Source of the DNA: an uncultured Alphaproteobacteria bacterium
Lineage (GTDB): Bacteria > Pseudomonadota > Alphaproteobacteria > HIMB59 > GCA-002718135
Assembly (NCBI GenBank): GCA_902628645.1
Contig: CACONS010000003.1
Location: 1,221 to 65,220, forward strand
DNA: 64,000 nucleotides
Direction: 5' to 3'
The translations under genes and the position numbers were made by a program. Every line of letters starts with the position of its first letter. Positions within the stretch are counted from its first letter, which is position 1. The notes beneath the pieces were generated by a model that was not told the origin of the DNA, did no database searches, and was given only the letters and a program-made list of their open reading frames with translations. This document shows positions 8,439 through 41,435 of this stretch, piece by piece.

Positions 8439-8439
8439 A

Positions 8440-13779: not shown

Positions 13780-13781
13780 AG

Positions 13782-20601: not shown

Positions 20602-20604
20602 TAA

Positions 20605-20919
20605 TTAATTATTTGAGCGTACAAGCTTTATATTTTTATCTTGATTTGAAAGTTCTTCGATTTTTACAATGAGAGGAACACTATTGTTTTGATTTTTATA
20701 AAAATACAACTCATACAGTGTTTTTAAATATGAGCTATTTTGATGAGCAGCTAATTCAATCTTATTAATTTTTAAATTTTCTGAAATTTTAGATATTTTT
20801 ATTTTTAAATTTTGATTATTTTTTTCGATTTCTCTTGTATTGTTGGCAATAAAAATCATTGAAAAAACCAGTATTAAATTTAGAATTAAAAAGAATATAA
20901 TCGATTTAGTATACTTCAT
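20605..20919 (-). CDS. ftsL: cell division protein FtsL
   Basis: 104-aa bitopic protein (TM helix then a coiled-coil-like region) in the canonical rsmH-ftsL-ftsI slot. Called mainly by position. Confidence 0.6.
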   Translation of the reverse strand: MKYTKSIIFFLILNLILVFSMIFIANNTREIEKNNQNLKIKISKISENLKINKIELAAHQNSSYLKTLYELYFYKNQNNSVPLIVKIEELSNQDKNIKLVRSNN

Positions 20920-20921
20920 TA

Positions 20922-21860: not shown

Positions 21861-21861
21861 A

Positions 21862-22751: not shown

Positions 22752-22780
22752 ATTAATAAATTTATTTAATTTTTGGTCAA
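22752..22780 (-). promoter_or_regulatory. candidate sigma-70 promoter of rnpB
   Basis: On the minus strand: TTGACC (22780..22775, formed by the Leu-Thr codons at the amidase C-terminus), a 17-nt spacer, then ATTAAT (22757..22752; TATTAAT with the preceding T). The mature rnpB 5' end (22746) lies 6 nt downstream of the -10. Confidence 0.4.
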
Positions 22781-23512: not shown

Positions 23513-23545
23513 TCAAATTTTTAAATTTAAATATATAAATAAATT

Positions 23546-24349: not shown

Positions 24350-26354
24350 AGAAAAGATAATTTTAAAAAGATTGAAAGAGCTCGCTGATTTAATCAAAAA
24401 ACATAACTATAACTATCACACTTTAGATAGACCTAAAATAACTGATAAAGAATTTGATAAGTTAGTTAAAGAAAATGATACTTTAGAAAAAAAATATCCA
24501 AGTTTAATTTTAAAGGATAGCCCAAACAAAAATTATGGTAGTAAAATAAAAGATAATTTTAAAAAAATAAAACACAACTCACAAATGTACTCACTTGCCA
24601 ATGCATTTGATAATAATGATATAAAAGAGTTTATAAAACGTTCAGTGAAATTTTTAAAATTAGATAATGATAATGATTTTCAATATATTTGTGAACCGAA
24701 AATCGATGGATTATCTTTAAATCTTGTCTATAAAAATGGAAATTTAATATCTGCTGGTACAAGAGGAGATGGATTAATAGGAGAAGATGTTACTGAAAAT
24801 ATTTTGAATATAAAAAATATTCCATCAAAGTTAAAAAAAGACTTTCCAGACTTTATAGAAATTAGAGGAGAGGTATTCTTAAATAAGAGTGATTTTGAAA
24901 AACTTAATTCTAAGTTGGAAAATAAATCTAAATTTGCAAATCCAAGGAATGCTGCAGCTGGTAGCCTAAGACAACTTGATATTTCTATTAGTCATAGTAG
25001 ACCACTTAAATTTATACCTCACGGTTTAGGTAGATGCTCAAATAATTTTGATAAAATTGAAAATTATTATGAGCAACTTAAAAAATGGAACATTGCTCCA
25101 AATAATTTAATCAAAAAATGTCAATCTGTTGAAGAAATTATAAAATTTTATAATCAAATAGATCAAAAACGCTCAGGTATTGATTATGATATTGATGGAT
25201 TAGTCGTAAAAATAAATAGTTTTAAACTACAAGAAAGATTAGGTTATGTTGGAAAAAACCCAAGATGGGCAGTTGCCGTAAAGTTTTCTGCTGAAAAAGC
25301 TAATACTATAATTCAATCTGTTGATTTCCAAGTTGGGAGAACTGGTGCAATAACCCCTGTAGCTAGATTGCAACCTGTTAATTTAGGTGGTGTAATTATA
25401 TCCAATGCTTCTTTACATAATTTTGATGAAATAGATAAAAAAAAAATAAATGTTTTAGATCTTGTTGAAATTGAAAGAGCAGGAGATGTTATTCCATATG
25501 TTACTAGATTAGTTAAAAAAAATAGTAAATTAAATACTAAAATAAAACCTCCTAGAAATTGCCCTATCTGTAGAAGTAATGTTATAAAAGAAAAAGATGA
25601 AGCAATACTAAGGTGCACAAATACATATGGTTGTAATTCACAAAAAATAGGGAGAATAATTCATTTCATCAGTAAAAAAAGTTTAAATATTGATGGATTT
25701 GGTGAAAAACAAGTTAAACAATTATTTAATTTAAAATATATAAATAAAGTGGAAGATGTATTCAATCTTGAAAAGTTTGAATCAGAAATAATTAAGTTAG
25801 ATGGATGGGGTAAATTATCTTTTACTAATTTAATTAATTCTATTAATAATTCAAAAAAAATATCACTTGATAAATTTATTTATTCACTTGGCATTAGATT
25901 TATTGGAGAAGTTAATGCTGAAATTTTAGCAAACGAGTTTAAAACATTAGATGTATTTATTTCATCCTCAAATAATACAAGCTTGTTAGAAAATATTGAC
26001 GGTTTAGGGCCAAAAGCAATTTCTTCAATTATAGATTTTTTTTCAAAAGATATAAATAAGGAAACTATTAAAAAATTAAAAAATTATTTATCAATTACCT
26101 TTATAAAGAGTGAAACATTAGATAATTTTTTTTCAAATAAGCATTTAGTTTTTACTGGTACTTTATCTGAATTATCAAGAGACGAAGCAAAGTACTTAGC
26201 AAAAACTAAAGGAGCAAAAATATTGTCTAGTATCAGTAAAAAAACAGATTTTCTCATTGCTGGAGAAAAGGCAGGTTCAAAAATAAATAAGGCAACACAA
26301 TTAGGAATTAAAATTTTAAATGAAAAAGAATTCCTTGAAAAAATTAATCTATAA
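24339..26354 (+). CDS. ligA: NAD-dependent DNA ligase
   Basis: Adenylation motif CEPKIDGLS, OB fold, Cys4 zinc finger (CPICRS...C..C), HhH and a C-terminal BRCT domain (FTGTL...R.EA). Confidence 0.95.
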   Translation: MMNKEKIILKRLKELADLIKKHNYNYHTLDRPKITDKEFDKLVKENDTLEKKYPSLILKDSPNKNYGSKIKDNFKKIKHNSQMYSLANAFDNNDIKEFIKRSVKFLKLDNDNDFQYICEPKIDGLSLNLVYKNGNLISAGTRGDGLIGEDVTENILNIKNIPSKLKKDFPDFIEIRGEVFLNKSDFEKLNSKLENKSKFANPRNAAAGSLRQLDISISHSRPLKFIPHGLGRCSNNFDKIENYYEQLKKWNIAPNNLIKKCQSVEEIIKFYNQIDQKRSGIDYDIDGLVVKINSFKLQERLGYVGKNPRWAVAVKFSAEKANTIIQSVDFQVGRTGAITPVARLQPVNLGGVIISNASLHNFDEIDKKKINVLDLVEIERAGDVIPYVTRLVKKNSKLNTKIKPPRNCPICRSNVIKEKDEAILRCTNTYGCNSQKIGRIIHFISKKSLNIDGFGEKQVKQLFNLKYINKVEDVFNLEKFESEIIKLDGWGKLSFTNLINSINNSKKISLDKFIYSLGIRFIGEVNAEILANEFKTLDVFISSSNNTSLLENIDGLGPKAISSIIDFFSKDINKETIKKLKNYLSITFIKSETLDNFFSNKHLVFTGTLSELSRDEAKYLAKTKGAKILSSISKKTDFLIAGEKAGSKINKATQLGIKILNEKEFLEKINL

Positions 26355-28572
26355 TTTTCAAAAACTTCAAATATACCTTTTTTAAAGAAGTGTTCTCAAA
26401 ATCAATCAAAGCTTTATCACCATCTAGTTTTATAATTTTTCCATTTCCAAATTTTTGATGATAGACATTTTTTCCTTTAGAAACATCTACTTCATATTCA
26501 AAATCCTGATTAAAATCCCAATCAATATTATTTTTTTTTGAGTTTTCTAATAGTCTTCTTCTTCCTGGGGTAATAATTTCTTCACTAAATGAGTCACTTT
26601 CTAAAAAATTATCTAAAAAGTTATTATCTTGAATGTATTTGGAATCGTTTATCTCCACTTTATCTTCTGGAAGTTCGCTTATAAATCTTGATGGTAAATT
26701 ATAATCATGTGATGCAAAAGAATATCTATTTTGATTTACGTATGTAATATAAATTTTTTTTCTTGCTCTTGTTAATGCAACATAAGCCAGCCTTCTTTCT
26801 TCTTCTAATCCCTGATTGCCTGACTCCTCTATTGATCTTTGACTCGGAAAAACTCCTTCTTCCCAACCAGCTAGAAAAACATAATCAAACTCTAATCCTT
26901 TAGCAGCATGCATTGTCATAAGAGTTATTGTTTCTTCAGAAGTATTTGTTATATTTTCCATGACCAAAGACACATGCTCCAAAAAACCTTCTATGTTTTC
27001 AAATTCTTTTAAACTTTCTATAAATTCATTTAAATTGTCTATTCTCGATAAACTGTCAGGTTTGTTTGAGTTCTCTTCCTCTTTTTTTAAGTAATCTAAA
27101 TAACCAGAGTCTTCTATTATTACTTTAGCTAATTCAATATGATCAAATTTCTTCTTAACCTTTTGCCATTTTAAAATATTATCAGTAAAATTATATAATT
27201 CTCCCCTTGCTTTAGAATTACCCTTAAATGTCAACTGTTGTGCAGATTCAAAAAGAGAAATATTATTCATTCTTGCATAGCTACTAATTTTACTAACTGT
27301 AGATTTTCCTATTCCTCTTTTAGGTACGTTGATTATTCTTTCAAAAGCTAAATCGTCAGATAGATTATTTGTTAATCTTAAATAAGCAATTATATCTTTA
27401 ATTTCTTTTCTTTCATAAAATCGTAATCCTCCAATTATTTTATAAGGAAGTCCAAGATTGATTAATCTTTCTTCAAAAGACCTAGTATGTGCAGCAACAC
27501 GAAACAAAATTGATATCTCGCTTAAATTTTTTTTCTCTTTTATTATATTTTCTATTTTGTCTGTTACAAAAATAGATTCTTCTTTTGTTTCCCAAAATCC
27601 ATTAATTGTAATTTTTTCACCGATCTGATTTTTACTCCATAATTCTTTTCCATATCTTCCTTTATTTTTTGCAATAAGAGTTGATGCACAGCTTAATATA
27701 TTTCTTGTCGATCGATAATTTTGTTCTAATCTTATTATTGTTACATTCTCAAAGTTTTTTTCAAAATTCAATAGATTTGTAACATCTGCTCCTCTCCAAG
27801 AATAAATTGATTGATCATCGTCACCAACACAACATATATTTTTGTTTCCTTTATATAAATATTGAATCCACTGTTGTTGTATGGGGTTAATATCTTGGTA
27901 TTCATCTACATGAATATATTTAAAAATGTTTTGATATTTTGATAATATATTATTATTTTTTTGAAAAATTTTTATACAAAATAAAATTAAATCACCAAAG
28001 TCAACGGTATTTAATCTAAGAAGTTCAGACTGATAGATACTGTATATTTTTCGAATTTCTTTATCATTTTTCCGATATTTATTTTCACTCAATTCATTAG
28101 GGCTTATTCCTTTATTTTTTAAATTATCTATAGCTGATAAATAATATTTAGGTGAGGTTTCTTTTGTATCTATTTTTTCTATTTCACAAATATTTTTTAT
28201 TAATTTTAATTGATCATCTACATCAATAATTAAAAAATTTTTTCTTAATCCTACTTCCTCATAATGTTGTCTTAATATTCTTAGTGATAAAGAGTGAAAT
28301 GTTCCTACCCACATATTATCAATCGGAAAATTTAATGCATCTCCGATTCGTGACTTCATTTCGCTTGCGGCTTTATTTGTAAAAGTAACTGCTAGAATTT
28401 GCCTAGGAGTGGCAAGTTTTTTAATTAATATATTTAAGATTCTGAAGGTTAATACCCTAGTTTTTCCACTTCCAGCACCCGCTAAAACAAGAAGAGATCC
28501 ATTCGTTTGTTGTACAGCACTTCTTTGCTCTTTATTCAATAAATCAAGATAATTTTGCGAATTTTCTGTCAT
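26344..28572 (-). CDS. uvrD: UvrD/Rep/PcrA-family SF1 DNA helicase
   Basis: Walker A AGAGSGKT, VDEYQDIN, QNYRS, TMHAAKGLEF, YVALTRARK and a C-terminal Tudor-like tail. The exact orthologue (UvrD vs Rep) was not resolved. Confidence 0.85.
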   Translation of the reverse strand: MTENSQNYLDLLNKEQRSAVQQTNGSLLVLAGAGSGKTRVLTFRILNILIKKLATPRQILAVTFTNKAASEMKSRIGDALNFPIDNMWVGTFHSLSLRILRQHYEEVGLRKNFLIIDVDDQLKLIKNICEIEKIDTKETSPKYYLSAIDNLKNKGISPNELSENKYRKNDKEIRKIYSIYQSELLRLNTVDFGDLILFCIKIFQKNNNILSKYQNIFKYIHVDEYQDINPIQQQWIQYLYKGNKNICCVGDDDQSIYSWRGADVTNLLNFEKNFENVTIIRLEQNYRSTRNILSCASTLIAKNKGRYGKELWSKNQIGEKITINGFWETKEESIFVTDKIENIIKEKKNLSEISILFRVAAHTRSFEERLINLGLPYKIIGGLRFYERKEIKDIIAYLRLTNNLSDDLAFERIINVPKRGIGKSTVSKISSYARMNNISLFESAQQLTFKGNSKARGELYNFTDNILKWQKVKKKFDHIELAKVIIEDSGYLDYLKKEEENSNKPDSLSRIDNLNEFIESLKEFENIEGFLEHVSLVMENITNTSEETITLMTMHAAKGLEFDYVFLAGWEEGVFPSQRSIEESGNQGLEEERRLAYVALTRARKKIYITYVNQNRYSFASHDYNLPSRFISELPEDKVEINDSKYIQDNNFLDNFLESDSFSEEIITPGRRRLLENSKKNNIDWDFNQDFEYEVDVSKGKNVYHQKFGNGKIIKLDGDKALIDFENTSLKKVYLKFLKIID

Positions 28573-30064: not shown

Positions 30065-31189
30065 TTATAATTTTAGATTTTTTATTTCTTCTTCAGTTAA
30101 TATTTCAGGTTGATTGGTAGTAGTAGACAGTTGATGATATTTATTTTCTTCAGCGGATTTTATAATTCCATCCATTATCTCTAGAACATGAAGAGATAAT
30201 TCAAGAGAACATCTTGCTTTTCGTTTATGAGATATAGAATCAATCATTTCTGAAAGACCTATTCCCCTATAATTTGCTTTTTTGTCACCATCCGCATCAC
30301 TTTTATTGGGAATACCTAATAACATGTTATCATTATTTATAGTTTCCCAATCACTATCTTTTTTGGAAATCAATAAATCACCACTAAAAAAATTTGGATC
30401 AGGAACTATCATTGAACCCTCAAGTCCATAGAGTTCAATTGTAGAGTGATTATTTTTCCAAACATCCCAAGTACAAAAAAACTGAACTTTTGCTTTGTTT
30501 TGAAACTCTAAAGAGCCCATCAGAGTTGTTGGTGTCTCAACTTTAATTTTATCACCGTATCTAGGTTGACTAGTTATTGTTCTTTCATTTGTAGCAGTGC
30601 CACTAATTGCATTTAATTGCTTTACTGGTCCAATTAAGTTTACTAATTGAGTAATGTAATAAACGCCAAGATCAAAAACAGGTCCTGCTCCAGGTTTAAA
30701 GAAAAAATCTGGGTTGGGGTGCCAATGTTCCATCCCATGAGACATTATATTAAAAGTGCCAAGAACAATTTTTCCTATTTTATTGTCTTCAATTAATTTT
30801 CTAGCTCTTTGCCCTGCTGCTCCCAGAAATGTATCTGGAGCACAACCAACATATAAACCCTTTTCATTTGCCAATTTTTGTATTTCTAAACCCTCTTGAA
30901 AATTCATTGCTAAGGGCTTTTCACTAAAACAATGTTTTCCACTAAGAAGTGATTTTGTAATTATTTCTTTATGGGCTGCAGGAATTGTTAAATTAATTAT
31001 TAAATCAATTTGATTATTTTCTAGAATTTCTTCAACAGATAAAACTTTAACATTATATTTAGATGCAGCATTTGATGCGGCATCTTTATTAATATCAGCA
31101 CAAGCAACTATTTTAAAATTGTTAAATATTTTTTGACATTCAAAATAAGTCTCAGAAATATTTCCACAGCCTATTATACCAATATTCAT
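30065..31189 (-). CDS. Gfo/Idh/MocA family NAD(P)-dependent sugar oxidoreductase
   Basis: N-terminal Rossmann GIIGCGNIS, the EKP motif (FSEKPLA), and a C-terminal alpha/beta domain. Confidence 0.8.
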   Translation of the reverse strand: MNIGIIGCGNISETYFECQKIFNNFKIVACADINKDAASNAASKYNVKVLSVEEILENNQIDLIINLTIPAAHKEIITKSLLSGKHCFSEKPLAMNFQEGLEIQKLANEKGLYVGCAPDTFLGAAGQRARKLIEDNKIGKIVLGTFNIMSHGMEHWHPNPDFFFKPGAGPVFDLGVYYITQLVNLIGPVKQLNAISGTATNERTITSQPRYGDKIKVETPTTLMGSLEFQNKAKVQFFCTWDVWKNNHSTIELYGLEGSMIVPDPNFFSGDLLISKKDSDWETINNDNMLLGIPNKSDADGDKKANYRGIGLSEMIDSISHKRKARCSLELSLHVLEIMDGIIKSAEENKYHQLSTTTNQPEILTEEEIKNLKL

Positions 31190-31962
31190 TATATATTTTC
31201 TAAATTTGCTAATGATTTAGTTGTGAATTCTTTATAATCTTTTGGATCATCATGCTCTAAAACAAATACTTCGCAAGATGTTTTCTTGACTTCAGTAATT
31301 AGTGTTTGCCAATCAATAAATCCTTCTCCAACTGCAGATTGTTCTTCATGTTCTAATAAATTTTTACTTTTATCGTAAAAATCTTTTAAGTGACATCCAA
31401 TAATTTTATTTGAATATTTATTTATCCAAGGAATAGGGTCGGCACCACCCGCAATGGTCCAGCCTAAATCAATTTCAAATTTCAATTTTTCATTATGATT
31501 CATCATACACTCTATAGGTAGCTTTCCACTTGGTAGTGGCTTGAATTCATAAGAATGATTGTGGTAACCAAGTGTTAATCCAGCATCTTCAAAAACATTT
31601 ACATAAGAGGATAATTTTTTTCCAAATTCCATCCATTCATCCTCATTCATATTAAATGTGTTTTTAAAGTCAGCATCTTTTCTTGCTGGAGGAGCAGGTA
31701 CAATAACATGTTTGATATTCATTTTACTTGCCCGATTTATGATATCACTTGGATCTATTAAAGATTCATAACTAACATGAGTAGACTTTGATGTAATATT
31801 TGATTGATCCATAATTGATTTAAATTCGTCTATATTCATTGACTCTAAGCCAAAAAGTTCAATATTAACGATACCTGAGTCTGATAAAAATTTTAGTATA
31901 CTATTATAAGGTTGAAAGTGTCTTGTAGTATAGAGTTGCATTGATATTTCTTTTTTTTCCAT
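31189..31962 (-). CDS. sugar phosphate isomerase/epimerase (xylose isomerase-like TIM barrel)
   Basis: E-D-H-E metal-site pattern (GYHNHSYEF, EIDLGW, CHLKD, VLEHD). Shares nucleotide 31189 with the downstream gene. Confidence 0.7.
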   Translation of the reverse strand: MEKKEISMQLYTTRHFQPYNSILKFLSDSGIVNIELFGLESMNIDEFKSIMDQSNITSKSTHVSYESLIDPSDIINRASKMNIKHVIVPAPPARKDADFKNTFNMNEDEWMEFGKKLSSYVNVFEDAGLTLGYHNHSYEFKPLPSGKLPIECMMNHNEKLKFEIDLGWTIAGGADPIPWINKYSNKIIGCHLKDFYDKSKNLLEHEEQSAVGEGFIDWQTLITEVKKTSCEVFVLEHDDPKDYKEFTTKSLANLENI

Positions 31963-31977
31963 TTTAAATTTTCTCCA

Positions 31978-32937
31978 TTAATTTAAATTTAACCAGTTTA
32001 TTTCTTCTTTATTTAATTCTATTTCTAAACAAGGAAGAGTGGTATCCAACTCACTAATTGATCTAGGGCCTATTAATGCAAAGGATGGAAAAGATTGGCT
32101 TAATGTCCAACTTGCTGCAATATTATTTGCAGAGCATCCTTTTTTTTCTGCTAATTCTCTAGCTCTTTTTTTTCTTTCCTTATTATCGTCACTATCATAA
32201 CAACTTATAGGTCCACTAGAATTTTCACCTGGTTTTCTCCAGGATGACTCAGCCTTTGTAATTTTTTTTTCTATTTCTTTTGTAATGTTATCATCTAAAA
32301 AATATCCTCTAGCTTGGCTTGACCATGACATATGGGATTTTTGAGTAGTCTTAAGATAATTTAATATTTCATTATCATTTGATGATAAACAACCATTCCA
32401 AAGTGGATTAATCATTTTGGCAAGAGCTAAATTGTTATTTAATATAGACATTTCTTGTTTATTGTTTTTTTGTGCCCAATCATTTCCCTTTTTGAATCTT
32501 TCAATAGTCCAATTAGAACCTCCAAATATTTTAATTCTCCCTTTTTCTTTTTCTTCATTCAAAACATCAATAAACTCATCAACTGGATAATCATTATTAT
32601 CTCGATGCATAATATAAATGTCCACATAATCTGTTTTCATTCTTTCAAGAGAAATAGTTAACTGTTTTGAGATAGATTCAGGGTTGCAATCAGGTGTGTG
32701 AGCACCTTTACCCAAAATTAGAATATCATCTCTATTATTATTATTTGTCAGCCATTGTCCTAAAACTTTTTCATGGTTGCCACCGCCATAAATAAACGCC
32801 GTATCAAACATATTTCCACCAACTTCAATCCAATGATCCCATAACTTAGAAGCCTCATTGATATCATCTTGGTTATCACATCCCATTACAAGTTTAGAAA
32901 TGTTCTTATCTATTCCTTCTATTTTATCGTATTTCAT
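31978..32937 (-). CDS. aldo/keto reductase
   Basis: FDTAFIYGGG.HE..LG, VDIYIMHR, IFGGSNW: the AKR catalytic Asp/Tyr/Lys/His scaffold pattern. Confidence 0.8.
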   Translation of the reverse strand: MKYDKIEGIDKNISKLVMGCDNQDDINEASKLWDHWIEVGGNMFDTAFIYGGGNHEKVLGQWLTNNNNRDDILILGKGAHTPDCNPESISKQLTISLERMKTDYVDIYIMHRDNNDYPVDEFIDVLNEEKEKGRIKIFGGSNWTIERFKKGNDWAQKNNKQEMSILNNNLALAKMINPLWNGCLSSNDNEILNYLKTTQKSHMSWSSQARGYFLDDNITKEIEKKITKAESSWRKPGENSSGPISCYDSDDNKERKKRARELAEKKGCSANNIAASWTLSQSFPSFALIGPRSISELDTTLPCLEIELNKEEINWLNLN

Positions 32938-33989
32938 TTTTCATCCTGTGGTAGCTTATAATTTACTTTCTGTCTCCAGATATCAAGAGCTTTAAGATTT
33001 CCTAATGTATCTTCCCAAGTCATTGCTGGATGAGGAGGTTCAGTTTTTTCTTTTGCAATGCATTGGCTAGCAAGTTCTCCTTCAAAGAAAAAAAGGTGTT
33101 CAGGTCCTTTGACATCGACTGTTTCTTCATTTTTACTTTTATTTTTATTTTTATTTATAATAATTTTTGCATGATATGGACCACCATCTCTACCAGGCAT
33201 CCAAGGATCTGGTAATTCAATTTTACCCTCTGAACCAATAATAATTGCATTATTTTTCATTGTTTCTCTAATGGCTGTAGATACTTTAGCTTTTATACCA
33301 TTTTTAAATTCTAAATTTGCATGAGCAATTTCATCAACTCCTGTTTCCCCTATTTTTGCTTCAGCATCTAAAAATTTTGGTTCTGAAAATTTATCTCCTA
33401 TTGCTACTCCTGCTATTAGTCTAGAAAAAGAAATTGGATATAGTCCAACATCAAGTATACCACCACCTGCTAAATTTTTATCAAATAACCTGTGATCACG
33501 TATTGTCTTACCCATATCAAAACCAAAAGAGGTTTCAATAGATATTACATCTCCTATCATTTTTTTTTTAATTATCTCAACTAGTTTTGGAATTTGTGGA
33601 TGACAACGATACATAAAACCCTCCATGTAAAATACGCCAGCTTCTCTTACAACATCAATAATTTTCTTTCCTTCATTAAAATTTATAGCTCCAGGTTTCT
33701 CACAAAGAATGTGTTTGCCTTTTCCAGCTGCTTTTATCGTCCATTCAGCATGTAAGTTATGGGGTGTAGAAATATAAATTGCATCTATGTGCTCTGAATT
33801 TATAATATCTTCATATGAATCAAATCTAAAGTCAGGATGAATATCATATTTGTCACCAAAAGTTTTTCTACGATCTTCACTTTTACTTGCTATACTTACT
33901 AATTGCCCTGAGTAGGAACCTTTCAATCCATCAGCAAAATTGTTTGCTATATTTCCAGGCCCAATTATTCCCCATCTAATCTTTTCCAT
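32934..33989 (-). CDS. Gfo/Idh/MocA family oxidoreductase (dimeric dihydrodiol / sugar 1-dehydrogenase-like)
   Basis: WGIIGPGNIA Rossmann motif, the CEKP motif, and GGGILDVGLYP. Confidence 0.8.
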   Translation of the reverse strand: MEKIRWGIIGPGNIANNFADGLKGSYSGQLVSIASKSEDRRKTFGDKYDIHPDFRFDSYEDIINSEHIDAIYISTPHNLHAEWTIKAAGKGKHILCEKPGAINFNEGKKIIDVVREAGVFYMEGFMYRCHPQIPKLVEIIKKKMIGDVISIETSFGFDMGKTIRDHRLFDKNLAGGGILDVGLYPISFSRLIAGVAIGDKFSEPKFLDAEAKIGETGVDEIAHANLEFKNGIKAKVSTAIRETMKNNAIIIGSEGKIELPDPWMPGRDGGPYHAKIIINKNKNKSKNEETVDVKGPEHLFFFEGELASQCIAKEKTEPPHPAMTWEDTLGNLKALDIWRQKVNYKLPQDEK

Positions 33990-34010
33990 TTCAATTTTTG
34001 TTTTTGCAAT

Positions 34011-35075
34011 CTAATTAATGACTGCTTTAAATTCTCCAGATTTGTATTTACTAGCCATTGCACCTAAAGAAATTGAATTAATAGAAGAAGCATTTCCTGC
34101 GGTTCCAAATTCTTGTAATCTACTTTTAACAACATCTTTCATAGCATCTTTAGAAAGTAATAAATATTTGCGAGGATCAAATTGTGAAGGATTTTCATAG
34201 AAATATTTTCTTACTGCAGCAGTGGCGGCTAATCTTAAATCAGTATCTACGTTAACTTTTCTTACACCATGTTTTATACCCTCTTGAATTTCGGAAACTG
34301 GCACTCCGTATGTCTCTTTTATCTTGCCTCCGTACTCATTAATAGTTTTTATTAAATCTTGTGGAACCGAGGATGAACCATGCATAACTAAATGTGTATT
34401 GGGAAGTCTTGCATGTATTTCTTTTATTCTATCTATTGCTAAAATATCTCCAGTTGGAGGTCTGGAAAATTTATAAGCTCCGTGGCTTGTACCAATAGCA
34501 ATTGCTAATGCATCAACATTTGTAGCTTTAACAAAATCTGAAGCTTCATTAGGATCGGTTAATAGCTGGTCATGATCAAGTTTACCTTCGGCACCAACAC
34601 CATCTTCTTTTTCGCCTGTTCCTGTCTCTAAAGAGCCTAAACAACCTATCTCCCCTTCAACTGAAACTCCTAATGCATGAGCCATATCAGTTGTTTCTTT
34701 AGTAACTCTTACATTATATTCAAAATCGGAAGGTGTTTTTTGATCATCTAATAATGAACCATCCATCATCACAGATGTAAAACCAAGTTCTATACAGTTT
34801 TTACAGTCTTTTGGAGAGCCGCCATGGTCTTGGTGCAAAACTGTTGGAATTTCTGTAAATTCATCCATTGCTGCTTCAACTAGTTTTTTCACAAAGATTG
34901 GTCCAGCATATTTTCTTGCAGCACCTGAAGCTTGAAGTATTACGGGACTATTCAATTCTTTAGCTCCTTCCATTATAGCTCTAATTGCTTCCAAATTATT
35001 TACATTGAATGCAGGTACACCATAATTATTTTCTGCTGCGTGATCTAAAAGTTGTCTAAGAGAAATTAAGGACAT
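34011..35075 (-). CDS. fba: class II fructose-bisphosphate aldolase (354-aa CbbA/long type)
   Basis: [28 protein letters not shown]-terminus, LHQDHG, and the GTSHGAYKF...HGSS zinc/cation site pattern. Confidence 0.93.
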
Positions 35076-35113
35076 TGAGTACTTTTATATTTTAAGAATT
35101 TAATTGCAACTAA

Positions 35114-35965
35114 TTATCCTTTTACTGCTCCAAATGTTAATCCTTGGATAAATTGTCTTTGCAATATAAAGAACATGATTACAGGAGGTAATGCCGCCAC
35201 AACAGATCCCGCTGAAACTAAGTTCCAAGCTGTGGTCCATTGACCTCTTAATACATCTAAACCAACAGTTATAGGTTTAACAGTATCTCCCTGTGTTAAA
35301 ATTAATGCCCAAAAATAATCGTTCCAAATAAAAGTAAATTCTAAAACGCCTAGTGCTGCAAGAGCAGGTATTGTTAATGGAATAATTATTTTTCTATAAA
35401 TCGTCCACTCAGTTGCTCCATCAGCTCTAGCAGCTTCAATAAGTTCAAAAGGTAGTTCTTTAATGAAATTTCTTAAAAAGAAAGTGCAAAAACCTGTCTG
35501 AAAAGCAATATGGAAAATAATTAAACCTAAATGACTATTATACATACCTAATTCAATTGATATACTTCTAACAGGTATCATAAGTATTTGATATGGAACA
35601 AAATTTCCTGCTATAAACATTGCAAATACCAACAAGTTTAATTTGAATCGATGCATAGCAAGTGAATAACCTGCAAGAGAACTCAAAAATAAAGTTCCTA
35701 TTACTGTTGGGATTGTAATAATAAGACTATTAAGGAAAAAACCTGCCATTTTTCCATCTGCAAATACTTCAGCATAATTAGAGATAAACGCTGTTTCTTT
35801 TGGAAAAGTCCAGTAATTACCTGCAAGAACATCATCAAAAGTTCTAATGGAAGTAAGCATAACAGCAATTAATGGTAATAACCAAATTACAAGAGTGATA
35901 ACAAGTATAACTCTATATCCTATATTAATTTTTAAAGAATAATTTTGAATTGGAGTTGGAAACAT
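35114..35965 (-). CDS. carbohydrate ABC transporter permease (CUT1, MalG/UgpE-like)
   Basis: Six TM helices and the EAA loop EAARADGATEWTIYRKIIIP. Confidence 0.88.
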   Translation of the reverse strand: MFPTPIQNYSLKINIGYRVILVITLVIWLLPLIAVMLTSIRTFDDVLAGNYWTFPKETAFISNYAEVFADGKMAGFFLNSLIITIPTVIGTLFLSSLAGYSLAMHRFKLNLLVFAMFIAGNFVPYQILMIPVRSISIELGMYNSHLGLIIFHIAFQTGFCTFFLRNFIKELPFELIEAARADGATEWTIYRKIIIPLTIPALAALGVLEFTFIWNDYFWALILTQGDTVKPITVGLDVLRGQWTTAWNLVSAGSVVAALPPVIMFFILQRQFIQGLTFGAVKG

Positions 35966-36879
35966 TATTTTTCTGAACTTTCATTTTTGAATAAACGATA
36001 TAAGAACCATGCAATATAAATATCCATTATTAAAAAAAGTATGGTAGCTATAGCTGCACCATATCCCATTCTGTAATTAAATAATGCCTCTTGATACATC
36101 TTATATGCTAAAACTTCTGAACTCCCCCAAGGACCACCAGCTGTCATAACAGCAATTAAATCAAATGCTCTGAGTGCACCAACTAGTGTTACAACAATTG
36201 CAATTAGAGTTGCTGCTCTTAATTGTGGTAATACAACGTGCCATAACATTGTCAATCCAGAAGCTCCATCTATTCTTCCAGCTTCAATCATTTCACGACT
36301 TACCCCAGTTAAACCAGTAATATACAATATCATTGTGTAAGCTATCCCTGGAAAAAATGATGCTATAATGATTCCATAAGTTGCTAAATTTTCATCTGCT
36401 AAAAAAGGTATTGGGTCTATACCAAAAAAACTCAATACATATGCTAAAGCTCCATATTTAGGATTATAAAACCACGTAAATATAACTCCTATAACAACAG
36501 CATTTATTACAAAAGGAAAATAAAATAATGATTTAATATATCTTATACCTAAAATTTTCTGATTAACAAAAAGAGCAAGTGCCAAGCCAATGGGAATAGC
36601 AAGTAAACTGAAAATTAACCATCTGATATTATTAAAAAGAGAAACATAAAACTCATCATCATCAGTGAATAAAGTTATATAATTTTTAAAACCAACAAAC
36701 TCCCAGTTAGGCTTTCCATTACCTCTCACTCCATCTTTGTCCATTCCATTCCACTCATGAAAACTAACCCAAATAGAATCAAAAATAGGATAAATTACAT
36801 AAATTAAAAAAATAAAGATTGCTGGAGCAAGAAAAAGAAATGGGGCTAATTTTAACTGATTACGTTCCCAAAAAGTCAT
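35965..36879 (-). CDS. carbohydrate ABC transporter permease (CUT1, MalF/UgpA-like)
   Basis: Six TM helices and the EAA loop EAGRIDGASGLTMLWHVVLPQL. 1-nt overlap with the next permease gene. Confidence 0.88.
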   Translation of the reverse strand: MTFWERNQLKLAPFLFLAPAIFIFLIYVIYPIFDSIWVSFHEWNGMDKDGVRGNGKPNWEFVGFKNYITLFTDDDEFYVSLFNNIRWLIFSLLAIPIGLALALFVNQKILGIRYIKSLFYFPFVINAVVIGVIFTWFYNPKYGALAYVLSFFGIDPIPFLADENLATYGIIIASFFPGIAYTMILYITGLTGVSREMIEAGRIDGASGLTMLWHVVLPQLRAATLIAIVVTLVGALRAFDLIAVMTAGGPWGSSEVLAYKMYQEALFNYRMGYGAAIATILFLIMDIYIAWFLYRLFKNESSEK

Positions 36880-36937
36880 TTAATTATAATATCTCTTCTT
36901 ATTTAGTTTAATAATATTAAATTTTAATAATAGAAAA

Positions 36938-36967
36938 ATAGAGGTGTAAAGAAAGTTACACCTCTAT
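36938..36967 (-). terminator. intercistronic stem-loop / partial terminator between binding-protein and permease genes
   Basis: Perfect 12-bp stem ATAGAGGTGTAA-(6 nt)-TTACACCTCTAT. On the minus transcript it is followed by UUUUCUAUUAUU. It starts 12 nt after the binding-protein stop. Confidence 0.5.
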
Positions 36968-36979
36968 TTAATATTTAAC

Positions 36980-38200
36980 TTATAATGCTCCGTGAATTCT
37001 AGCTCTTTCTTTTTCTAGTCGAGCTCTAATCTTATCTTCACGGTCAGGTTTAACCATAAACTCTTGGAAACCTTCCATTGCTGCACTTGCCATATCTGGA
37101 TTTGAATCTCTATCCCAGAATTGAGCAATATCATCAGCAGCTGCAAGCATTTTTGCACCCATTATTGAAAATCTATTTTCAGGTTTTGGAGCATTTTTGT
37201 TAGGACTTAACATACCTGCAATTTTTGCCCATTCCCCAGCTGCGTTTGCATTTGACATAAATGCTAAGAATTTTTTTGCATCCTCTACATTTTTAGCACC
37301 TGCAGGAATATGCATAGTGTCAGTGGGTGCATCTTCAGCTACACCTACACCTTCATTTATTGTAGGGAACTGGAAGAAGTCCATTTGATCACCTATACCA
37401 GCAGCTTCAAAAGTTGGTACGTAAAAATTACCAATTAAATACATAGCAGCTTCACCATTAATTTGTGGCGCTTGTGCATCTTGCCATGAAAAAGAAGCGT
37501 GATCTTCAAGGAAGTATCCTGGATCAATTAATTCTCTCCAGTGATCAAATACAGCGTCTAATCTTGGATCTTCATAACTTACTTTACCAGCGGTTAAATC
37601 CATATGGAATTGGTATCCATTAATTCTTAAATTTAAGTAGTCAAACCACCCGCCTGCAGTCCAAAGAAATTTAGTACCTATAGTAATTGGTGTAATGCCA
37701 TTCTTTTTGAGCATTGCACACACCCATTTAAATTCTTCCCAATCTTTTGGAACATTTAAGCCCAGTTGATCAAAAAGATCTTTTCTGTAGTACACACCCC
37801 ATTGGTAGTAACCCCAAGGAACACCATATTGTTTTCCGTCTACAGTTAAAGAACCTTTAGTTGATGCCATTAAATCATTTAATCCTGCATCGTCCCAAAC
37901 ATCACTAACATCCATGAATAAATTTTGATCAACAAAAAATTTCATTCTGTTTCCAGCAAACCAAATTGCTACGTCTGGAGACTCAGCAGTAAGAAAGTTT
38001 CTTATTGCTGTCTTATAAGCTTCGTGTTCAAATTCATTTACAACAACTGTTACTTCTGGATGAGCAGCTTTAAATGCTTCAACATATGAGTTGAAACCTG
38101 CCATTGAGGACTCACCTGACTGGTTAGAATTAATAACTAATGTACCAGCAGAGGCTATAGTTGAGGTAAATAAAATTACTAAAGTTAATAATTTTTTCAT
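36980..38200 (-). CDS. carbohydrate ABC transporter periplasmic substrate-binding protein (CUT1)
   Basis: Signal peptide MKKLLTLVILFTSTIASAGT and a Trp/Tyr-rich family 1 solute-binding domain. I place the start at ATG 38200, preceded by GGAGGAAAA. The ORF-track start at 38233 adds 11 residues upstream of the Shine-Dalgarno sequence. Confidence 0.88.
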   Translation of the reverse strand: MKKLLTLVILFTSTIASAGTLVINSNQSGESSMAGFNSYVEAFKAAHPEVTVVVNEFEHEAYKTAIRNFLTAESPDVAIWFAGNRMKFFVDQNLFMDVSDVWDDAGLNDLMASTKGSLTVDGKQYGVPWGYYQWGVYYRKDLFDQLGLNVPKDWEEFKWVCAMLKKNGITPITIGTKFLWTAGGWFDYLNLRINGYQFHMDLTAGKVSYEDPRLDAVFDHWRELIDPGYFLEDHASFSWQDAQAPQINGEAAMYLIGNFYVPTFEAAGIGDQMDFFQFPTINEGVGVAEDAPTDTMHIPAGAKNVEDAKKFLAFMSNANAAGEWAKIAGMLSPNKNAPKPENRFSIMGAKMLAAADDIAQFWDRDSNPDMASAAMEGFQEFMVKPDREDKIRARLEKERARIHGAL

Positions 38201-38279
38201 TTTTCCTCCAAAATTAATAACTTTTAGTAACATATCGATATATTTTTAAAATACTTAATTTAAATTAATAATGAAAATT

Positions 38280-38356
38280 TGGTGGGCCCTCAGGGACTTG
38301 AACCCCGGACCACCCCGTTATGAGCGGGGCGCTCTAACCAACTGAGCTAAGAGCCC
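38280..38356 (-). tRNA. tRNA with CAT anticodon (elongator Met or, more likely, lysidine-modified Ile2)
   Basis: The minus strand folds as a 77-nt cloverleaf: GGGCUCU/AGGGCCC acceptor, CCCCG-CUCAUAA-CGGGG anticodon arm, GGUUCAAGUCC T-arm, encoded CCA. The G1-C72 pair and absence of the GGG/CCC anticodon stem argue against an initiator. Confidence 0.9.
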
Positions 38357-38419: not shown

Positions 38420-39784
38420 ATGACTAAGCTAACTATTATTGGTGCAGGTAGTGCTGTATTTACAAAAAATATAGTAACTGACATTTTATCAATTAATAAT
38501 TTTAAGAAAATAGAGATTGCTCTTCATGATATAAATCCTGTTCGACTAAAAGCATCACATGAATTACTTAATATAATTTCTAAAAAACTAGAAGCTTCTC
38601 CAATAATTACATCTCATACTAATAGAAAAGAGTCTTTAAAAGGATCAGATTTTGTTCAAACTACAATTCAAGTTGGTGGCTATAATCCATCTACAATTAT
38701 TGATTTTAAAATTCCAAATGAATTTGGTTTGAAGCAAACCATAGCAGACACTCTAGGTATCGGTGGAATAATGAGAGGGCTGAGGACAATTCCCGTACTA
38801 CTTGATATTGCAAAAGATATAATGGAAATTTGTCCGAAAGCTATATGGTTACAATACGTTAATCCTATGTGTTCAAATATGATTGCAATCAATAAAGCAT
38901 TTCCAGAACTTAAAGTAATGGGTTTATGTCATTCAGTACAAGGAACTGCTGAAATGTTAGCAAAAGATTTAAATGAAGATATTAACAACATTGAATATTT
39001 GTGTGCTGGAATAAATCATATGGCTTTTTATAAGAAATTTGAAAAAAAAATTGATGGAAAATCTAATGAGGATTTATATCCAAAATTAAAAATATTAGCT
39101 GATAAAATTTTGAATAATGAAGCAGAATCTTCAAGAAGTAATAAAGTTGATAACGAGTCAAACAAAATTCTCTATGAAAAAGTAAGATATGAAATCTTAA
39201 AAAGATTTGGATACTTTGTTACTGAATCAAGTGAACATTTTGCAGAATATGTCCCTTGGTTTATTAAGAAAAATAGAGATGATATAATTGAAAAATATAA
39301 AATTCCTATTGAGGAGTATATTGATAGATGTGAGAACAATGTTAGATTATGGAATGATTTGGAAAAGGATATGTCTCCAATTTATGATCAGCCACTTAGA
39401 AGGAGTAACGAATATGCTTCCTATATTATTGATGGAATATTAAATGGAAGTGAAATTACAATAAACGCAAACATAATGAATGAAGGTTATATAGATAATC
39501 TCCCATCAAATTGTTGTGTAGAAGTTCCTTGCACTATTAATTCTAATGGGATTAAACCTCAAAAAATAGGAAAATTACCTGAGCAATTAGCTGCTTTAAT
39601 GAGAACAAACATAAATGTTCAAATACTTACTGCGGAAGCTGCACTTACTAAAAAAAGAGAGCATATTTATCATGCGGCTATGCTTGATCCCTTAACAGGT
39701 GCAAATTTAACAATAGATGAAATATATGATATGACTGATAAAATGATTGAAGCACATGGAAACTACTTACCTAAATATTATTAA
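38420..39784 (+). CDS. glycoside hydrolase family 4 (NAD+/Mn2+-dependent; MelA-like alpha-galactosidase/alpha-glucosidase)
   Basis: N-terminal IIGAGSAVFTKN dinucleotide fold, the GLCHSVQGT motif shared with MelA/AglA, and NHMAF. Confidence 0.82.
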   Translation: MTKLTIIGAGSAVFTKNIVTDILSINNFKKIEIALHDINPVRLKASHELLNIISKKLEASPIITSHTNRKESLKGSDFVQTTIQVGGYNPSTIIDFKIPNEFGLKQTIADTLGIGGIMRGLRTIPVLLDIAKDIMEICPKAIWLQYVNPMCSNMIAINKAFPELKVMGLCHSVQGTAEMLAKDLNEDINNIEYLCAGINHMAFYKKFEKKIDGKSNEDLYPKLKILADKILNNEAESSRSNKVDNESNKILYEKVRYEILKRFGYFVTESSEHFAEYVPWFIKKNRDDIIEKYKIPIEEYIDRCENNVRLWNDLEKDMSPIYDQPLRRSNEYASYIIDGILNGSEITINANIMNEGYIDNLPSNCCVEVPCTINSNGIKPQKIGKLPEQLAALMRTNINVQILTAEAALTKKREHIYHAAMLDPLTGANLTIDEIYDMTDKMIEAHGNYLPKYY

Positions 39785-40611
39785 TGACCAAACTAACTGT
39801 TAAAGATTTATTTGAAAAAAAAGGAAAAGTAAAATTAACCGAATTATATGTGACAAATGCTCTTGAGGCTTTCGCAGCTGAAAAAGCTGGTATAGATATC
39901 CAAATTGTATCTTTTAAAAAAGAAACTCTTAGAACTGGAGTTGCAACAAATAGATGGTTTAAAGATGCACATATAAAGGATATTAGAGAAGCTGCGCCAA
40001 ATACTTTTATGATATATGGGCTTGGTCAACTGTCATCACCTGAAAGGGCTATAGATGCTGCGCTAATAGCAAGAGACAATGGTGCAGATGCTGTTTACTG
40101 TGGAAATAGTCCAAAATATATAGAAGCTCTTCGCAATGAAGGTTTACCAGCAGTCAGTCATATTGGACTCATACCCTATAAGAGTACATGGACCGGTGGT
40201 TTTAAAGCTGTTGGTAAAGATTCTGAGTCTGCATTCAAAGTTTATCAAGATGCTATTTCGTATGATAATGCCGGCGCTATCGGTCTTGAAGTAGAATGCG
40301 TCCCAGACCGAGTAGCTGAAATAATTACTAAGAGGGTTAATTTACTTACATTATCAATGGGAAGTGGACCAAAATGTGATGTAGAATTTTTATTTATTCA
40401 AGATGTTATTGGCACCAACACAGAAAGAGTACCTCGCCATGCTAAAATTTTTAAAGATACAAATAAATCATATGAAAAACTTTTAGAAGACACAATTGAG
40501 GGAATTAAAAGTTATGTCAAAGACGTTAATACAAACAAATTCCCAACAAAATCAAATATTGTTAAAATTAAAGACGAAGAATTTGATAAATTTTTGAATA
40601 AGGTTGGCTAA
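39784..40611 (+). CDS. PanB-fold (ketopantoate hydroxymethyltransferase-like, ICL/PEPM superfamily) protein, probably not a canonical PanB
   Basis: The C-terminal half matches PanB (SHIGLIPYKS, GGFKAVGK, LEVECVP, SMGSGPKCD). The positions of GDSLGM, ADLPF and KIEGG are instead VSFKKET, YGLGQ and VYCGNS. TAATG coupling to the GH4 gene. Confidence 0.55.
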   Translation: MTKLTVKDLFEKKGKVKLTELYVTNALEAFAAEKAGIDIQIVSFKKETLRTGVATNRWFKDAHIKDIREAAPNTFMIYGLGQLSSPERAIDAALIARDNGADAVYCGNSPKYIEALRNEGLPAVSHIGLIPYKSTWTGGFKAVGKDSESAFKVYQDAISYDNAGAIGLEVECVPDRVAEIITKRVNLLTLSMGSGPKCDVEFLFIQDVIGTNTERVPRHAKIFKDTNKSYEKLLEDTIEGIKSYVKDVNTNKFPTKSNIVKIKDEEFDKFLNKVG

Positions 40612-41435
40612 ATAATTATTTTCAACAAATCTTTACCAATAACTGGGTCTTTGCCAAAATCATTTCTAACTATTTTTTTTAGTCTTGGAATATTAAATCT
40701 TGTTGGCACAAAATGAGTTAAGATCAATTTTTTACTTTTAGTAATATATGCAACTTTGCCAACTTGAGATGAAGATGTGTGATATTTTTTAACATTATGT
40801 AGTGTTTTTTTCGTTCTCATTCTATTAATTTCCTTAATTTCACCTTCAACAAAAACTTCGTGAAGTAATACATCTGATTTATAAGCATATTTCATTAAAT
40901 TTTCACAGGGTCTTGTATCTCCACTAATTGTAAGTTTTTTTGAATTATTAAAGAATGAAAATCCATATGCATATTTTACAGGTTTATGATCAACTTCAAA
41001 ATATTTTACTTTTAAATCTTTGAATGAATAACTACCATTAGAATTAAATTCAGTTACTTTAATATCAAACGCTTTTATTGAAGATCTTGATTCATAAGAT
41101 ATTCTTAACTTCCTTTCATCATGAAAAGCATCCATAATTTTTTTTACAAATTTCTTTGTACCTTTTGGTCCATATATTTTCCAAGGTTTTGTTCTATACG
41201 AATGCCAAGAAGATATAATTAATTGGTAAAGATCAACAACATGATCAGAGTGTAGATGAGTCAAAAATAATGCATCAATATTAGCTGAAGAAATATTTGC
41301 TTCATTTAGTCTTTGGGTAACACCTGACCCACAATCAACTAGTATTTTTACATACCTTGTGCTTACAAAGTTTGCTGAACCACATCTTTTATAATCAACA
41401 CTTGGACACCCTGTCCCAAGTAATATCAATTCCAT
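40608..41435 (-). CDS. MBL-fold metallo-hydrolase (RNase Z/BN-like)
   Basis: LTHLHSDH motif, an upstream LVDCGSG, and a C-terminal LTHF. 1-nt overlap with the rpoD stop. Confidence 0.72.
   Translation of the reverse strand: MELILLGTGCPSVDYKRCGSANFVSTRYVKILVDCGSGVTQRLNEANISSANIDALFLTHLHSDHVVDLYQLIISSWHSYRTKPWKIYGPKGTKKFVKKIMDAFHDERKLRISYESRSSIKAFDIKVTEFNSNGSYSFKDLKVKYFEVDHKPVKYAYGFSFFNNSKKLTISGDTRPCENLMKYAYKSDVLLHEVFVEGEIKEINRMRTKKTLHNVKKYHTSSSQVGKVAYITKSKKLILTHFVPTRFNIPRLKKIVRNDFGKDPVIGKDLLKIII

Follow-up and report, generated by a model that had tools for sequence, protein, structure and literature searches.

Eight tightly packed genes on the minus strand of the 64-kb stretch of DNA analyzed here (the window), at positions 30065 to 38200, form a sugar import and oxidoreductase operon, and about 60 related loci display the modular island to which it belongs at a single chromosomal site. 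The analysis demonstrated the gene content of the operon and its variation among relatives, a deletion in the window relative to its close relatives, selection on its importer (importer A), and a lyase-type active site in its TIM barrel protein (TIM). In our best reading, to which we give an even chance, the operon would specify an unregulated importer of galactose or galactosides, with its ATPase encoded elsewhere, that feeds an oxidize-eliminate-reduce type of sugar chemistry. The family of every protein was known already, and the importer is of the ordinary carbohydrate ATP-binding cassette (ABC) type; the oddities specific to the window are largely accounted for by the deletion, and the broader island is the more interesting subject.

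In the direction of transcription, the operon comprises genes for a substrate-binding protein (SBP; open reading frame [ORF] 36980 to 38233, likely start 38200), permease A (MalF/UgpA-like; 35965 to 36879; BPD_transp_1, UgpA/GlcT-like), permease B (MalG/GlcU-like; 35114 to 35965; BPD_transp_1, GlcU model 155 bits, GlcU/UgpE-like), a CbbA-type class II fructose-bisphosphate aldolase (FBA; 34011 to 35075; F_bP_aldolase, TIGR01521), the oxidoreductase Gfo2 (32934 to 33989; GFO_IDH_MocA), an aldo-keto reductase (AKR; 31978 to 32937; Aldo_ket_red, 148 bits), TIM (31189 to 31962; AP_endonuc_2), and the oxidoreductase Gfo1 (30065 to 31189; GFO_IDH_MocA). All eight ORFs are intact, and the intergenic distances from SBP to Gfo1 are 100, -1, 38, 21, -4, 15, and -1 nt. 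The AKR gene overlaps that of Gfo2 by 4 nt and the Gfo1 gene overlaps that of TIM by 1 nt, and both pairs, Gfo2-AKR and TIM-Gfo1, are by this arrangement translationally coupled. A ribosome-binding site and ATG at 38200 were kept in seven aligned loci and yield a protein of 406 amino acids, the length of SBP homologues; the true SBP start is most likely located there. ORF, Pfam, and NCBIfam analyses confirmed the gene order, families, and gaps reported in a preliminary description of this DNA, and gaps of -4 to 100 nt support its proposal of a single tight operon.

For comparison, one genome per GTDB species was scanned with an alignment of TIM homologues, which gave 29 SAR11-type loci, while look-ups seeded with the aldolase and with MlaC added 15 loci and a metagenome scan for class I aldolases added 80. 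The ORFs of each locus were mapped to the window proteins by BLASTP, and unknown ORFs were checked with Pfam. With a GC content of 22 to 34% and source names of Pelagibacteraceae, the window is assigned to a SAR11 genome; this origin, like the GH4 and PanB-family genes and the tRNA-Met described below, had not been noted in the preliminary description. Every SAR11 locus was bordered on one side by rpoD, a gene of the metallo-beta-lactamase (MBL) fold, and tRNA-Met and on the other by mlaC-mlaA-uvrD-ligA. The Gfo2-AKR and TIM-Gfo1 pairs made up the constant core of the island; the TIM-Gfo1 pair was present in all of the about 45 SAR11 loci and in one HIMB59-type locus (L028), and its stop-start overlap was kept in every locus, L028 included. 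The variable part consisted of importers A, B, and C, a LacI-family repressor, MalK, the glycosidases GH4 and GH1, a PhyH dioxygenase, and the aldolase, of either class II or class I. Importer A is the AcbH-like type found in the window. Importer B has a GtsA-like SBP, which scored 251 bits against a Pseudomonas glucose/galactose binder and 219 bits against SAR11_0769 (8HQQ), and is followed by a MalK-type ATPase, whereas importer C is distinguished by a fused permease of 608 amino acids. The LacI-family gene, placed between AKR and importer B, is encoded in the opposite direction. Apart from this MalK, the only ATPase seen in the island was in L097, where a more distantly related MalK precedes importer A.

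The architecture of the window (importer A-FBA-Gfo2-AKR-TIM-Gfo1, no MalK) recurred in 8 GTDB species representatives and 8 metagenome or single-cell contigs, and the flanking proteins of these MalK-less loci were only 60 to 80% identical to those of the window. In about 28 loci, MalK and importer B were located ahead of TIM-Gfo1, with LacI after Gfo2-AKR wherever the locus was long enough. Intermediate combinations were also found: L010 and L012 had the window-type architecture plus LacI, and L011 and L100 had both importers plus LacI, with MalK seen in L011 and L100 ending before that point. On one 48-kb Pelagibacteraceae contig, the accessions of Gfo1 (...406), permease B (...417), and GH4 (...420) are numbered in a way that, as numbering alone, fits a 15-gene composite island in the lineage of the window.

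Sampling based on MlaC, which is blind to operon content, gave seven contigs whose MlaC was 92 to 95% identical to that of the window. All seven carried Gfo1-TIM-MalK-permease-permease-SBP B, and the six longer ones also carried LacI-AKR-Gfo2. By contrast, the five genes that separate AKR from TIM in such relatives are missing from the window and from L004, which is 95% identical to it. The 15-nt spacer left between AKR and TIM (31963 to 31977, minus strand), TGGAGAAAATTTAAA, resembles the last 15 nt of the malK gene that lies ahead of TIM in variant B, GAGGAGAGAATTTAA, and is probably the scar of a clean deletion in which LacI, importer B, and MalK were lost. Judged by these gene orders, the window is a deletion variant relative to its close relatives, so the missing ATPase and regulator are explained historically rather than functionally. 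The preliminary description had listed their absence as an unusual trait; the absence in the window stands, but it is not a design feature, given the MalK-importer B block in seven of seven closest relatives. The four-enzyme core of the island was present at the same site in all seven sampled genomes of one major SAR11 lineage, as well as in several other SAR11 lineages.

The absence itself was supported by several scans. A six-frame scan of the window for the ABC signature and Walker A motifs found no ABC ATPase, and tblastn of the window with SAR11 MalK, LacI, ROK kinase, class I FBA, GH1, and PhyH returned nothing at an E value of <1e-3, in agreement with the earlier claim that the window encodes no ATPase, kinase, or regulator. 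Moreover, Pfam scans and tblastn detected no lactonase, dehydratase, kinase, or KDG(P) aldolase in the window. The simplest reading is that importer A would be driven by a MalK/MsiK-type ATPase encoded elsewhere; in composite islands, importers A and C presumably depend on the MalK that accompanies importer B.

Importer A is, by its domain content, a CUT1-type carbohydrate ABC importer with a secreted family 1 SBP and two MalF/MalG-type permeases. The SBP matched SBP_bac_1 (131 bits) and SBP_bac_8 (116 bits) in Pfam and begins with a signal peptide-like N terminus, MKKLLTLVILFTSTIASAG. Its best solved relative was the galactose-binding protein AcbH (3OO6; E value of 5e-60 over residues 29 to 400), and YcjN was among its weak matches. 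Orthology of the SBP with the glucose binder SAR11_0769 was considered and rejected, as the match to 8HQQ reached only 36 bits (E value of 3.5e-8) over a partial alignment.

The SBP and both permeases showed 88 to 93% protein identity to lineages with UvrD 68 to 79% identical. Codon comparison revealed that the same genes were only 44 to 64% identical at fourfold synonymous sites, which is near saturation and about the level between unrelated alleles in this AT-rich genome. Importer A is under strong purifying selection, also between the alleles of the window and L004. High protein identity despite near-saturated synonymous sites, together with a conserved hairpin (described below), argues that importer A is functional. 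Between the window and L004, DNA identity was 94 to 96% in the flanks but 84% in the SBP gene and 87% in the permease A gene, with 93 to 95% identity at the protein level, and the segment from 35965 to 38200 is a recombination tract in which the protein sequence was preserved. That importer A had moved recently by horizontal transfer from one SAR11 subclade to another was first inferred from 88 to 92% protein identity against 68% for UvrD but was rejected because the near saturation of synonymous sites points to purifying selection and older module exchange.

Among solved structures, the best relative of TIM by sequence was AtOGE (8BVK; phmmer E value of 1.5e-27, 100 bits, over residues 6 to 253 of 257), an Agrobacterium 3-keto-O-glycoside beta-eliminase with His132, Asp163, His189, Glu233, and His134 as metal ligands and base (PMC10628242). 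TIM residues H134-N-H136, D165, H191, and E236 align with AtOGE H132/H134/D163/H189/E233, and these five active-site residues were invariant in 13 homologues. The AlphaFold (AF2) model of TIM had a mean predicted local distance difference test score (pLDDT) of 92.9; its top PDB neighbors in Foldseek were an uncharacterized Parabacteroides protein, AtOGE (TM score of 0.88 on the target), AL1, and BT1, while AtHYD, IolE, IolI, the YcjR 4-epimerase, and ketose 3-epimerases ranked lower. TIM is predicted to be a Mn2+-dependent 3-keto-glycoside 1,2-lyase of the AtOGE/AL1/BT1 kind, a class of enzymes discovered only recently. The AtOGE match, the conserved H-x-H/D/H/E site, and the fold matches support the link to 3-keto-sugar routes that had been drawn earlier for this enzyme set. 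Distant TIM homologues (25 to 30% identity; Caldilineaceae, Cohnella, and others) were also followed up and set aside, having no consistent neighborhood, with a Gfo neighbor in 11 of 51. In addition, TIM falls into two deep allele classes (84 to 95% versus 63 to 67% protein identity; the window versus L013 to L024), which occur among genomes with Gfo1, mlaC, and uvrD 91 to 98% identical and suggest allele exchange or functional divergence.

The oxidoreductases are more distantly placed. The best characterized matches of Gfo1 were weak, namely, levoglucosan dehydrogenase (68 bits, full length), DgpA1 (54 bits), WlbA (48 bits), and the BT_2159 family (41 bits), so that its matches to C3 dehydrogenases lie at 41 to 68 bits against family cutoffs of 450 to 650. 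Its nearest characterized relatives are mostly sugar C3 dehydrogenases, and Gfo1 is a candidate sugar C3 dehydrogenase/reductase. Gfo2 matched PDB entries for dihydrodiol/xylose dehydrogenase (104 bits), the 3-ketoreductase KijD10 (100 bits), aldose-aldose oxidoreductase (90 bits), GFOR (83 bits), and anhydrofructose reductase (83 bits), as well as the model of the haloarchaeal xylose 1-dehydrogenase Gfo6 (101 bits), and it has the EKP and D-x-G-x-Y motifs. By these matches, Gfo2 resembles enzymes that act at the anomeric carbon (C1) or reduce keto-sugars. The AKR had only distant characterized relatives, including IolS (80 bits, partial), the keto-reductase DepB (66 bits), and L-galactose dehydrogenase (44 bits). 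Gfo2 (through KijD10 and anhydrofructose reductase) and AKR (through DepB) are candidates for a 3-keto-sugar reductase, with no close orthology at these scores. Against the BT_2158/2159-type dehydrogenases, Gfo1 and Gfo2 scored 22 to 41 bits versus cutoffs of 650 to 750.

Divergently from the operon, a GH4 gene is located on the plus strand (38420 to 39784; Glyco_hydro_4 plus 4C). Its product matched PF02056 (192 bits) and PF11975 (201 bits), exceeded the PRK15076 (MelA) cutoff (587 versus 486 bits), and contains the NAD-binding motif IIGAGS and the Cys-His metal motif GLCHS; by family and motifs, it is an NAD+/Mn2+-dependent glycosidase of the MelA (alpha-galactosidase) subfamily. Its best match to a solved structure, at 125 bits, was not close. 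GH4 also adjoins importer A in L004, L010, L012, L026, L027, and L084-85. The adjacent GH4 and the AcbH-like SBP point towards galactose or alpha-galactosides as the substrate. The preliminary description held that the substrate could not be assigned from sequence, and in this respect it can be taken a step further, as a prediction towards galactose and alpha-galactosides. A PanB-family gene (39784 to 40611, plus strand; Pantoate_transf, 133 bits, below both NCBIfam panB cutoffs) has its start overlapping the GH4 stop and was seen in no locus other than the window and L004, its 90% cluster having two members. It is a lineage-specific addition whose membership in the system is uncertain.

The FBA passed the TIGR01521 equivalog model (587.2 versus 496.35 bits) and is of the CbbA-type class II; tagatose-bisphosphate models scored far below their cutoffs for this protein. 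The FBA homologues examined (two proteins, 78 and 84% identical, on eight contigs) were all located between permease B and Gfo2. In L027 (6964 to 7980) and eleven metagenome contigs (L092 to L101 and L104), a class I FBA (Pfam Glycolytic, 399 bits) occupied the class II slot, which by its position is a nonhomologous replacement in place. About 65 other low-GC contigs carried a class I FBA in a transketolase-PGK-aldolase-ThiE-EF-P cluster (tkt-pgk-fba), which is the classical housekeeping context, and the operon class I copies formed their own clades apart from the tkt-pgk-fba copies in a neighbor-joining tree. Because the slot is conserved and class I replaces class II there, the operon aldolase appears tied to the module; it is most likely a second, module-linked enzyme, the selected property being FBP-aldolase activity itself. 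The preliminary description spoke of a housekeeping-looking class II FBA inside the operon. Its embedding is real, but it is probably not the housekeeping copy, since SAR11-like contigs carry a separate class I FBA. Phosphofructokinase has been reported absent in the dominant SAR11 subclade Ia (PMC10308909).

Two elements may bear on expression. In the 100-nt spacer after the SBP gene, a 14-bp hairpin plus T-run (36936 to 36969, minus strand; fold z of -3.7) lies between the SBP and permease A genes, and its stem was maintained by compensatory changes in 12 related loci. The arms differ among loci yet pair, as in GAGGTGTAA/TTACACCTC, GAGGCGGAA/TTCCGCCTC, and AAGGCGGAA/TTCCGCCTT. Since the stem sequence varies but pairing persists, the hairpin is a selected element, likely a partial terminator or mRNA stabilizer that gives surplus SBP mRNA. 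The second element is a tRNA-Met gene (CAT; 38280 to 38356, minus strand; ARAGORN, and Rfam tRNA at 68.6 bits), situated 79 nt upstream of the SBP start, on the same strand, between the GH4 and SBP genes. It occupied the identical position in all variant A loci checked and was invariant in the alignment, and no terminator-like hairpin was seen between it and the SBP gene. The tRNA-Met may be a source of read-through transcription into the operon or a recombination anchor. A sigma-70 promoter scan performed no better than shuffles (55 sites versus 56.8 expected).

According to the reading that we favor, no dedicated repressor would control the operon, whose transcripts might arise by read-through that starts at the tRNA-Met promoter, with the hairpin leading to surplus SBP mRNA. 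Importer A would bring in galactose or a small galactoside, driven by a MalK/MsiK-type ATPase from another locus, and the MelA-type GH4 would split alpha-galactosides. Gfo1 would oxidize a glycoside, possibly a beta-glycoside, at C3, and the TIM lyase would then eliminate the aglycone. The resulting keto-glycal could be hydrated spontaneously or by TIM and reduced to the hexose by Gfo1, AKR, or Gfo2, while the extra aldolase may join the triose-phosphate and hexose-bisphosphate pools for the carbon of this route.

Several observations weigh against this scheme. Monosaccharides are the ligands of the solved relatives of importers A and B, and such sugars lack an aglycone that could be eliminated; the glycosidases (GH4 here, GH1 in relatives) cleave glycosides, which makes a lyase route partly redundant. 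No second TIM barrel or dedicated hydratase (AtHYD/LgdB2 type, DUF1080) was found in the window by Pfam scans and by tblastn for a paralogue, and distant TIM homologues outside SAR11 mostly occur without a Gfo neighbor. Gfo1 weakly matches every C3 dehydrogenase, so its regiochemistry is a guess. The aldolase is without convincing substrate logic and, should phosphofructokinase be missing from the genome, would have no evident supply of substrate. Finally, with no ATPase in the 64-kb window, the importer may be dead in this genome.

The main rival, which we regard as improbable, is a Leloir-independent conversion of galactose to glucose, in which 3-keto-galactose, made by one dehydrogenase, would be epimerized at C4 by TIM and reduced to glucose by AKR or a Gfo protein, as in E. 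coli YcjQRS; the island would in that case convert monosaccharides rather than cleave bonds. It was reported that galKMT is missing in SAR11 (PMC10308909), which would suit such a route. So would the sugars involved, as the importer A SBP is closest to galactose-specific AcbH, glucose and galactose are both ligands of SAR11_0769 and of relatives of importer B, and monosaccharides are already set free by the GH4 and GH1 enzymes of the locus. An oxidize/reduce epimerization could likewise be served by two or three oxidoreductases from different families, and the 3-keto-glucoside 4-epimerase YcjR has the same fold as TIM. Nevertheless, TIM is much closer to the lyases: AtOGE was matched at 100 bits by phmmer while YcjR gave no match at an E value of <0.01, and Foldseek E values were 1e-14 for the lyases versus 6e-9 for YcjR (rank 32). 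The active site would also separate the two, since that of TIM is the lyase-type H-x-H/D/H/E. Ketose and keto-glycoside epimerases use an E/D/H/E site.

A similarly low probability is given to an oxidative catabolism, in which Gfo2 and/or AKR would act as aldose 1-dehydrogenases and the lactones or acids formed would enter a non- or semiphosphorylative Entner-Doudoroff-type route encoded elsewhere; this would make the island kin to the SAR11 "glycolysis operon." Such a scheme leaves the lyase-type TIM barrel and its obligate coupling to Gfo1 unexplained, the SBP is not an orthologue of SAR11_0769, and the window contains no lactonase, dehydratase, kinase, or KDG(P) aldolase. Its appeal lies in the best relatives of Gfo2 (xylose/dihydrodiol dehydrogenase, Gfo6, aldose-aldose oxidoreductase, and GFOR), in the weak link of AKR to L-galactose dehydrogenases, and in the variant Entner-Doudoroff pathway, tied to a variable sugar operon, that was predicted for SAR11 (PMC3448164, PMC12636525).

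It is less probable still that the operon is a decaying remnant, with importer A left motorless by the deletion of MalK and LacI and the whole operon heading for loss. Although the closest relatives keep MalK in cis, the window has a deletion scar and no ABC ATPase in 64 kb, and the form shared by the window and L004 is in the minority within their lineage, none of the eight ORFs is disrupted, and the MalK-less architecture has been stable in at least eight species-level lineages whose flanking proteins differ by 20 to 40%. Strong purifying selection on importer A, including that between the window and L004 alleles, points the same way, and ATPase sharing among such importers (MsiK, MsmX) is well documented.

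An Iol-like catabolism of cyclitols of the inositol type, to which the preliminary description had seen a match and which does share broad families with the operon (Gfo/Idh/MocA, AP_endonuc_2, an AKR with IolS as its best PDB match at 80 bits, partial, and the class II aldolase fold), is very improbable and was rejected on model scores, as none of the four enzymes nears an Iol equivalog cutoff (iolG models, 60 and 93 bits versus 355; iolE, 41.5 bits versus 290), the aldolase is a TIGR01521 equivalog and true CbbA-type FBA rather than IolJ, the lyases outrank IolE and IolI as fold matches, the adjacent genes encode a glycosidase and an SBP of the sugar type, and the Pfam-scanned window ORFs included no kinase or other Iol-type family, iolB, iolC, and iolD not having been searched for specifically.

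Beyond the importer-fed lyase scheme that we favor, a bolder proposal, which we consider doubtful, is that the four-enzyme core would constitute a self-contained, hydrolase-independent pathway by which SAR11, the most abundant heterotroph in the ocean, could cleave and recycle small beta-glycosides via 3-keto intermediates without a dedicated hydratase, the second FBP aldolase being a phosphofructokinase-independent link to central carbon. Its substrates may include laminarin-, galactolipid-, or anhydro-sugar-derived compounds. If this were true, the algal sugar harvested by each SAR11 ecotype would depend on the exchangeable importers and glycosidases and on PhyH. Which sugars SAR11 uses, and how it does so without standard glycolysis, is a long-standing question of the marine carbon cycle, and the locus makes it concrete, with a fixed site and a conserved four-enzyme core around which importers, glycosidases, repressor, and aldolase are swapped. 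If confirmed, metagenomic counts of island modules could be read as ecotype-specific sugar niches, and the MalK-less variants would provide a natural experiment on whether importers share an ATPase in a streamlined genome. One study did not find galactoside-type importers in SAR11, and our literature search returned no paper tying SAR11 to 3-keto-glycoside lyases or to a GH4/AcbH-like module.

Further genes were observed in and around the island. A PhyH-family Fe/2-oxoglutarate dioxygenase gene is located directly upstream of Gfo2 in L004 (7151 to 7984), in L172, L176, L178, and L179 (about 19780 to 20603), and in L100, and beside TIM in L028 (6109 to 6924); it is absent from the window, where the FBA-Gfo2 gap is 21 nt. 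Three variant B loci (L020, L021 [11901 to 13262], and L023) contain a GH1 beta-glucosidase gene between Gfo1 and mlaC. In L028, a HIMB59-type metagenome-assembled genome (5204 to 11492), TIM-Gfo1 is found beside ROK-family kinase-like, PhyH, and GH38-like genes and a different ABC importer. The MBL-fold gene of the window (40608 to 41435, minus strand; Lactamase_B_2, with Pfam hits that include an Apyc1-like family) was kept between rpoD and the island in all loci. The island adjoins a conserved housekeeping block (window positions 6452 to 22323 and 22766 to 28572) that comprises the dcw cell division/murein cluster, an amidase, a bamD-like yfiO, ligA, and uvrD, and this conserved flank makes the island site easy to find in any SAR11 genome. 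The other window ORFs scanned were housekeeping genes, including ftsZ/A/Q, ddl, lpxC, fumC, carAB, greA, trxB, ggt, and prfA.

Among known systems, a lyase is encoded together with a Gfo reductase in the Agrobacterium tumefaciens glycoside operon GlycDH-AtOGE-AtHYD-Gfo (Bitter et al. 2023, PMC10628242), and analogous operons are lgd (levoglucosan, Bacillus smithii) and dgp (C-glycosides). Like the A. tumefaciens operon, the window combines a predicted Mn2+ TIM barrel, which has the same H-x-H/D/H/E site and finds its best sequence match there, with adjacent Gfo/Idh/MocA oxidoreductases, and the logic would be the same: oxidize C3, eliminate, hydrate, and reduce. Identity between TIM and AtOGE is only about 24 to 33%, and the activity in the window is a predicted one. 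In contrast to the A. tumefaciens operon, the window has neither a flavin adenine dinucleotide (FAD)-type periplasmic GlycDH nor a hydratase paralogue, contains an AKR in place of the second TIM barrel, and has its enzymes encoded within the operon of an ABC importer, along with an FBP aldolase. The 3-keto-beta-glucopyranoside 1,2-lyases AL1 of Alistipes and BT1 of Bacteroides (8TCD, 8TCR, and 8TCT) are top fold neighbors of TIM and have the GYHNH motif region in common with it, but the sequence match spans only about 75 residues (44 bits), and the BT_2158/2159-type partners of that pathway match Gfo1 and Gfo2 at only 22 to 41 bits. A further parallel lies next to the operon, in that GH4 enzymes oxidize, eliminate, add water, and reduce in one active site; the same chemistry is proposed here for Gfo1 and TIM, where it would be split over two enzymes.

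With regard to import, one ATPase is shared among several such importers in the MsiK system of Streptomyces and the MsmX system of Bacillus. Likewise, the SBP and two permeases of the window are encoded without an ATPase of their own, as are importers A and C in islands where the MalK of importer B is present; sharing in SAR11, unlike in those systems, is putative. The E. coli ycjQRS-ycjNOPV cluster (PDB names 6WN6 and 8VQK) carries out 3-keto-glycoside epimerization beside an ABC importer. In both loci, a sugar ABC importer of one and the same class is accompanied by a Gfo/Idh/MocA protein, a further dehydrogenase, and a TIM barrel enzyme, but the ycj cluster has its own ATPase, whereas the window has a lyase-like TIM and no phosphorylase or mutase. 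Within SAR11, a variable glucose-uptake or "glycolysis" operon was reportedly described by Schwalbach in 2010. SAR11_0769 is the glucose/galactose binder of the SAR11 variable glucose-uptake operon (Clifton 2024, PMC11485210). The importer of the window is of a different type, since its SBP scored 36 bits against 8HQQ compared with 219 bits for importer B of its relatives; the two operons nevertheless occur in the same clade, and both represent variable, ecotype-linked importers of the same sugar ABC class in bacteria with patchy sugar use.

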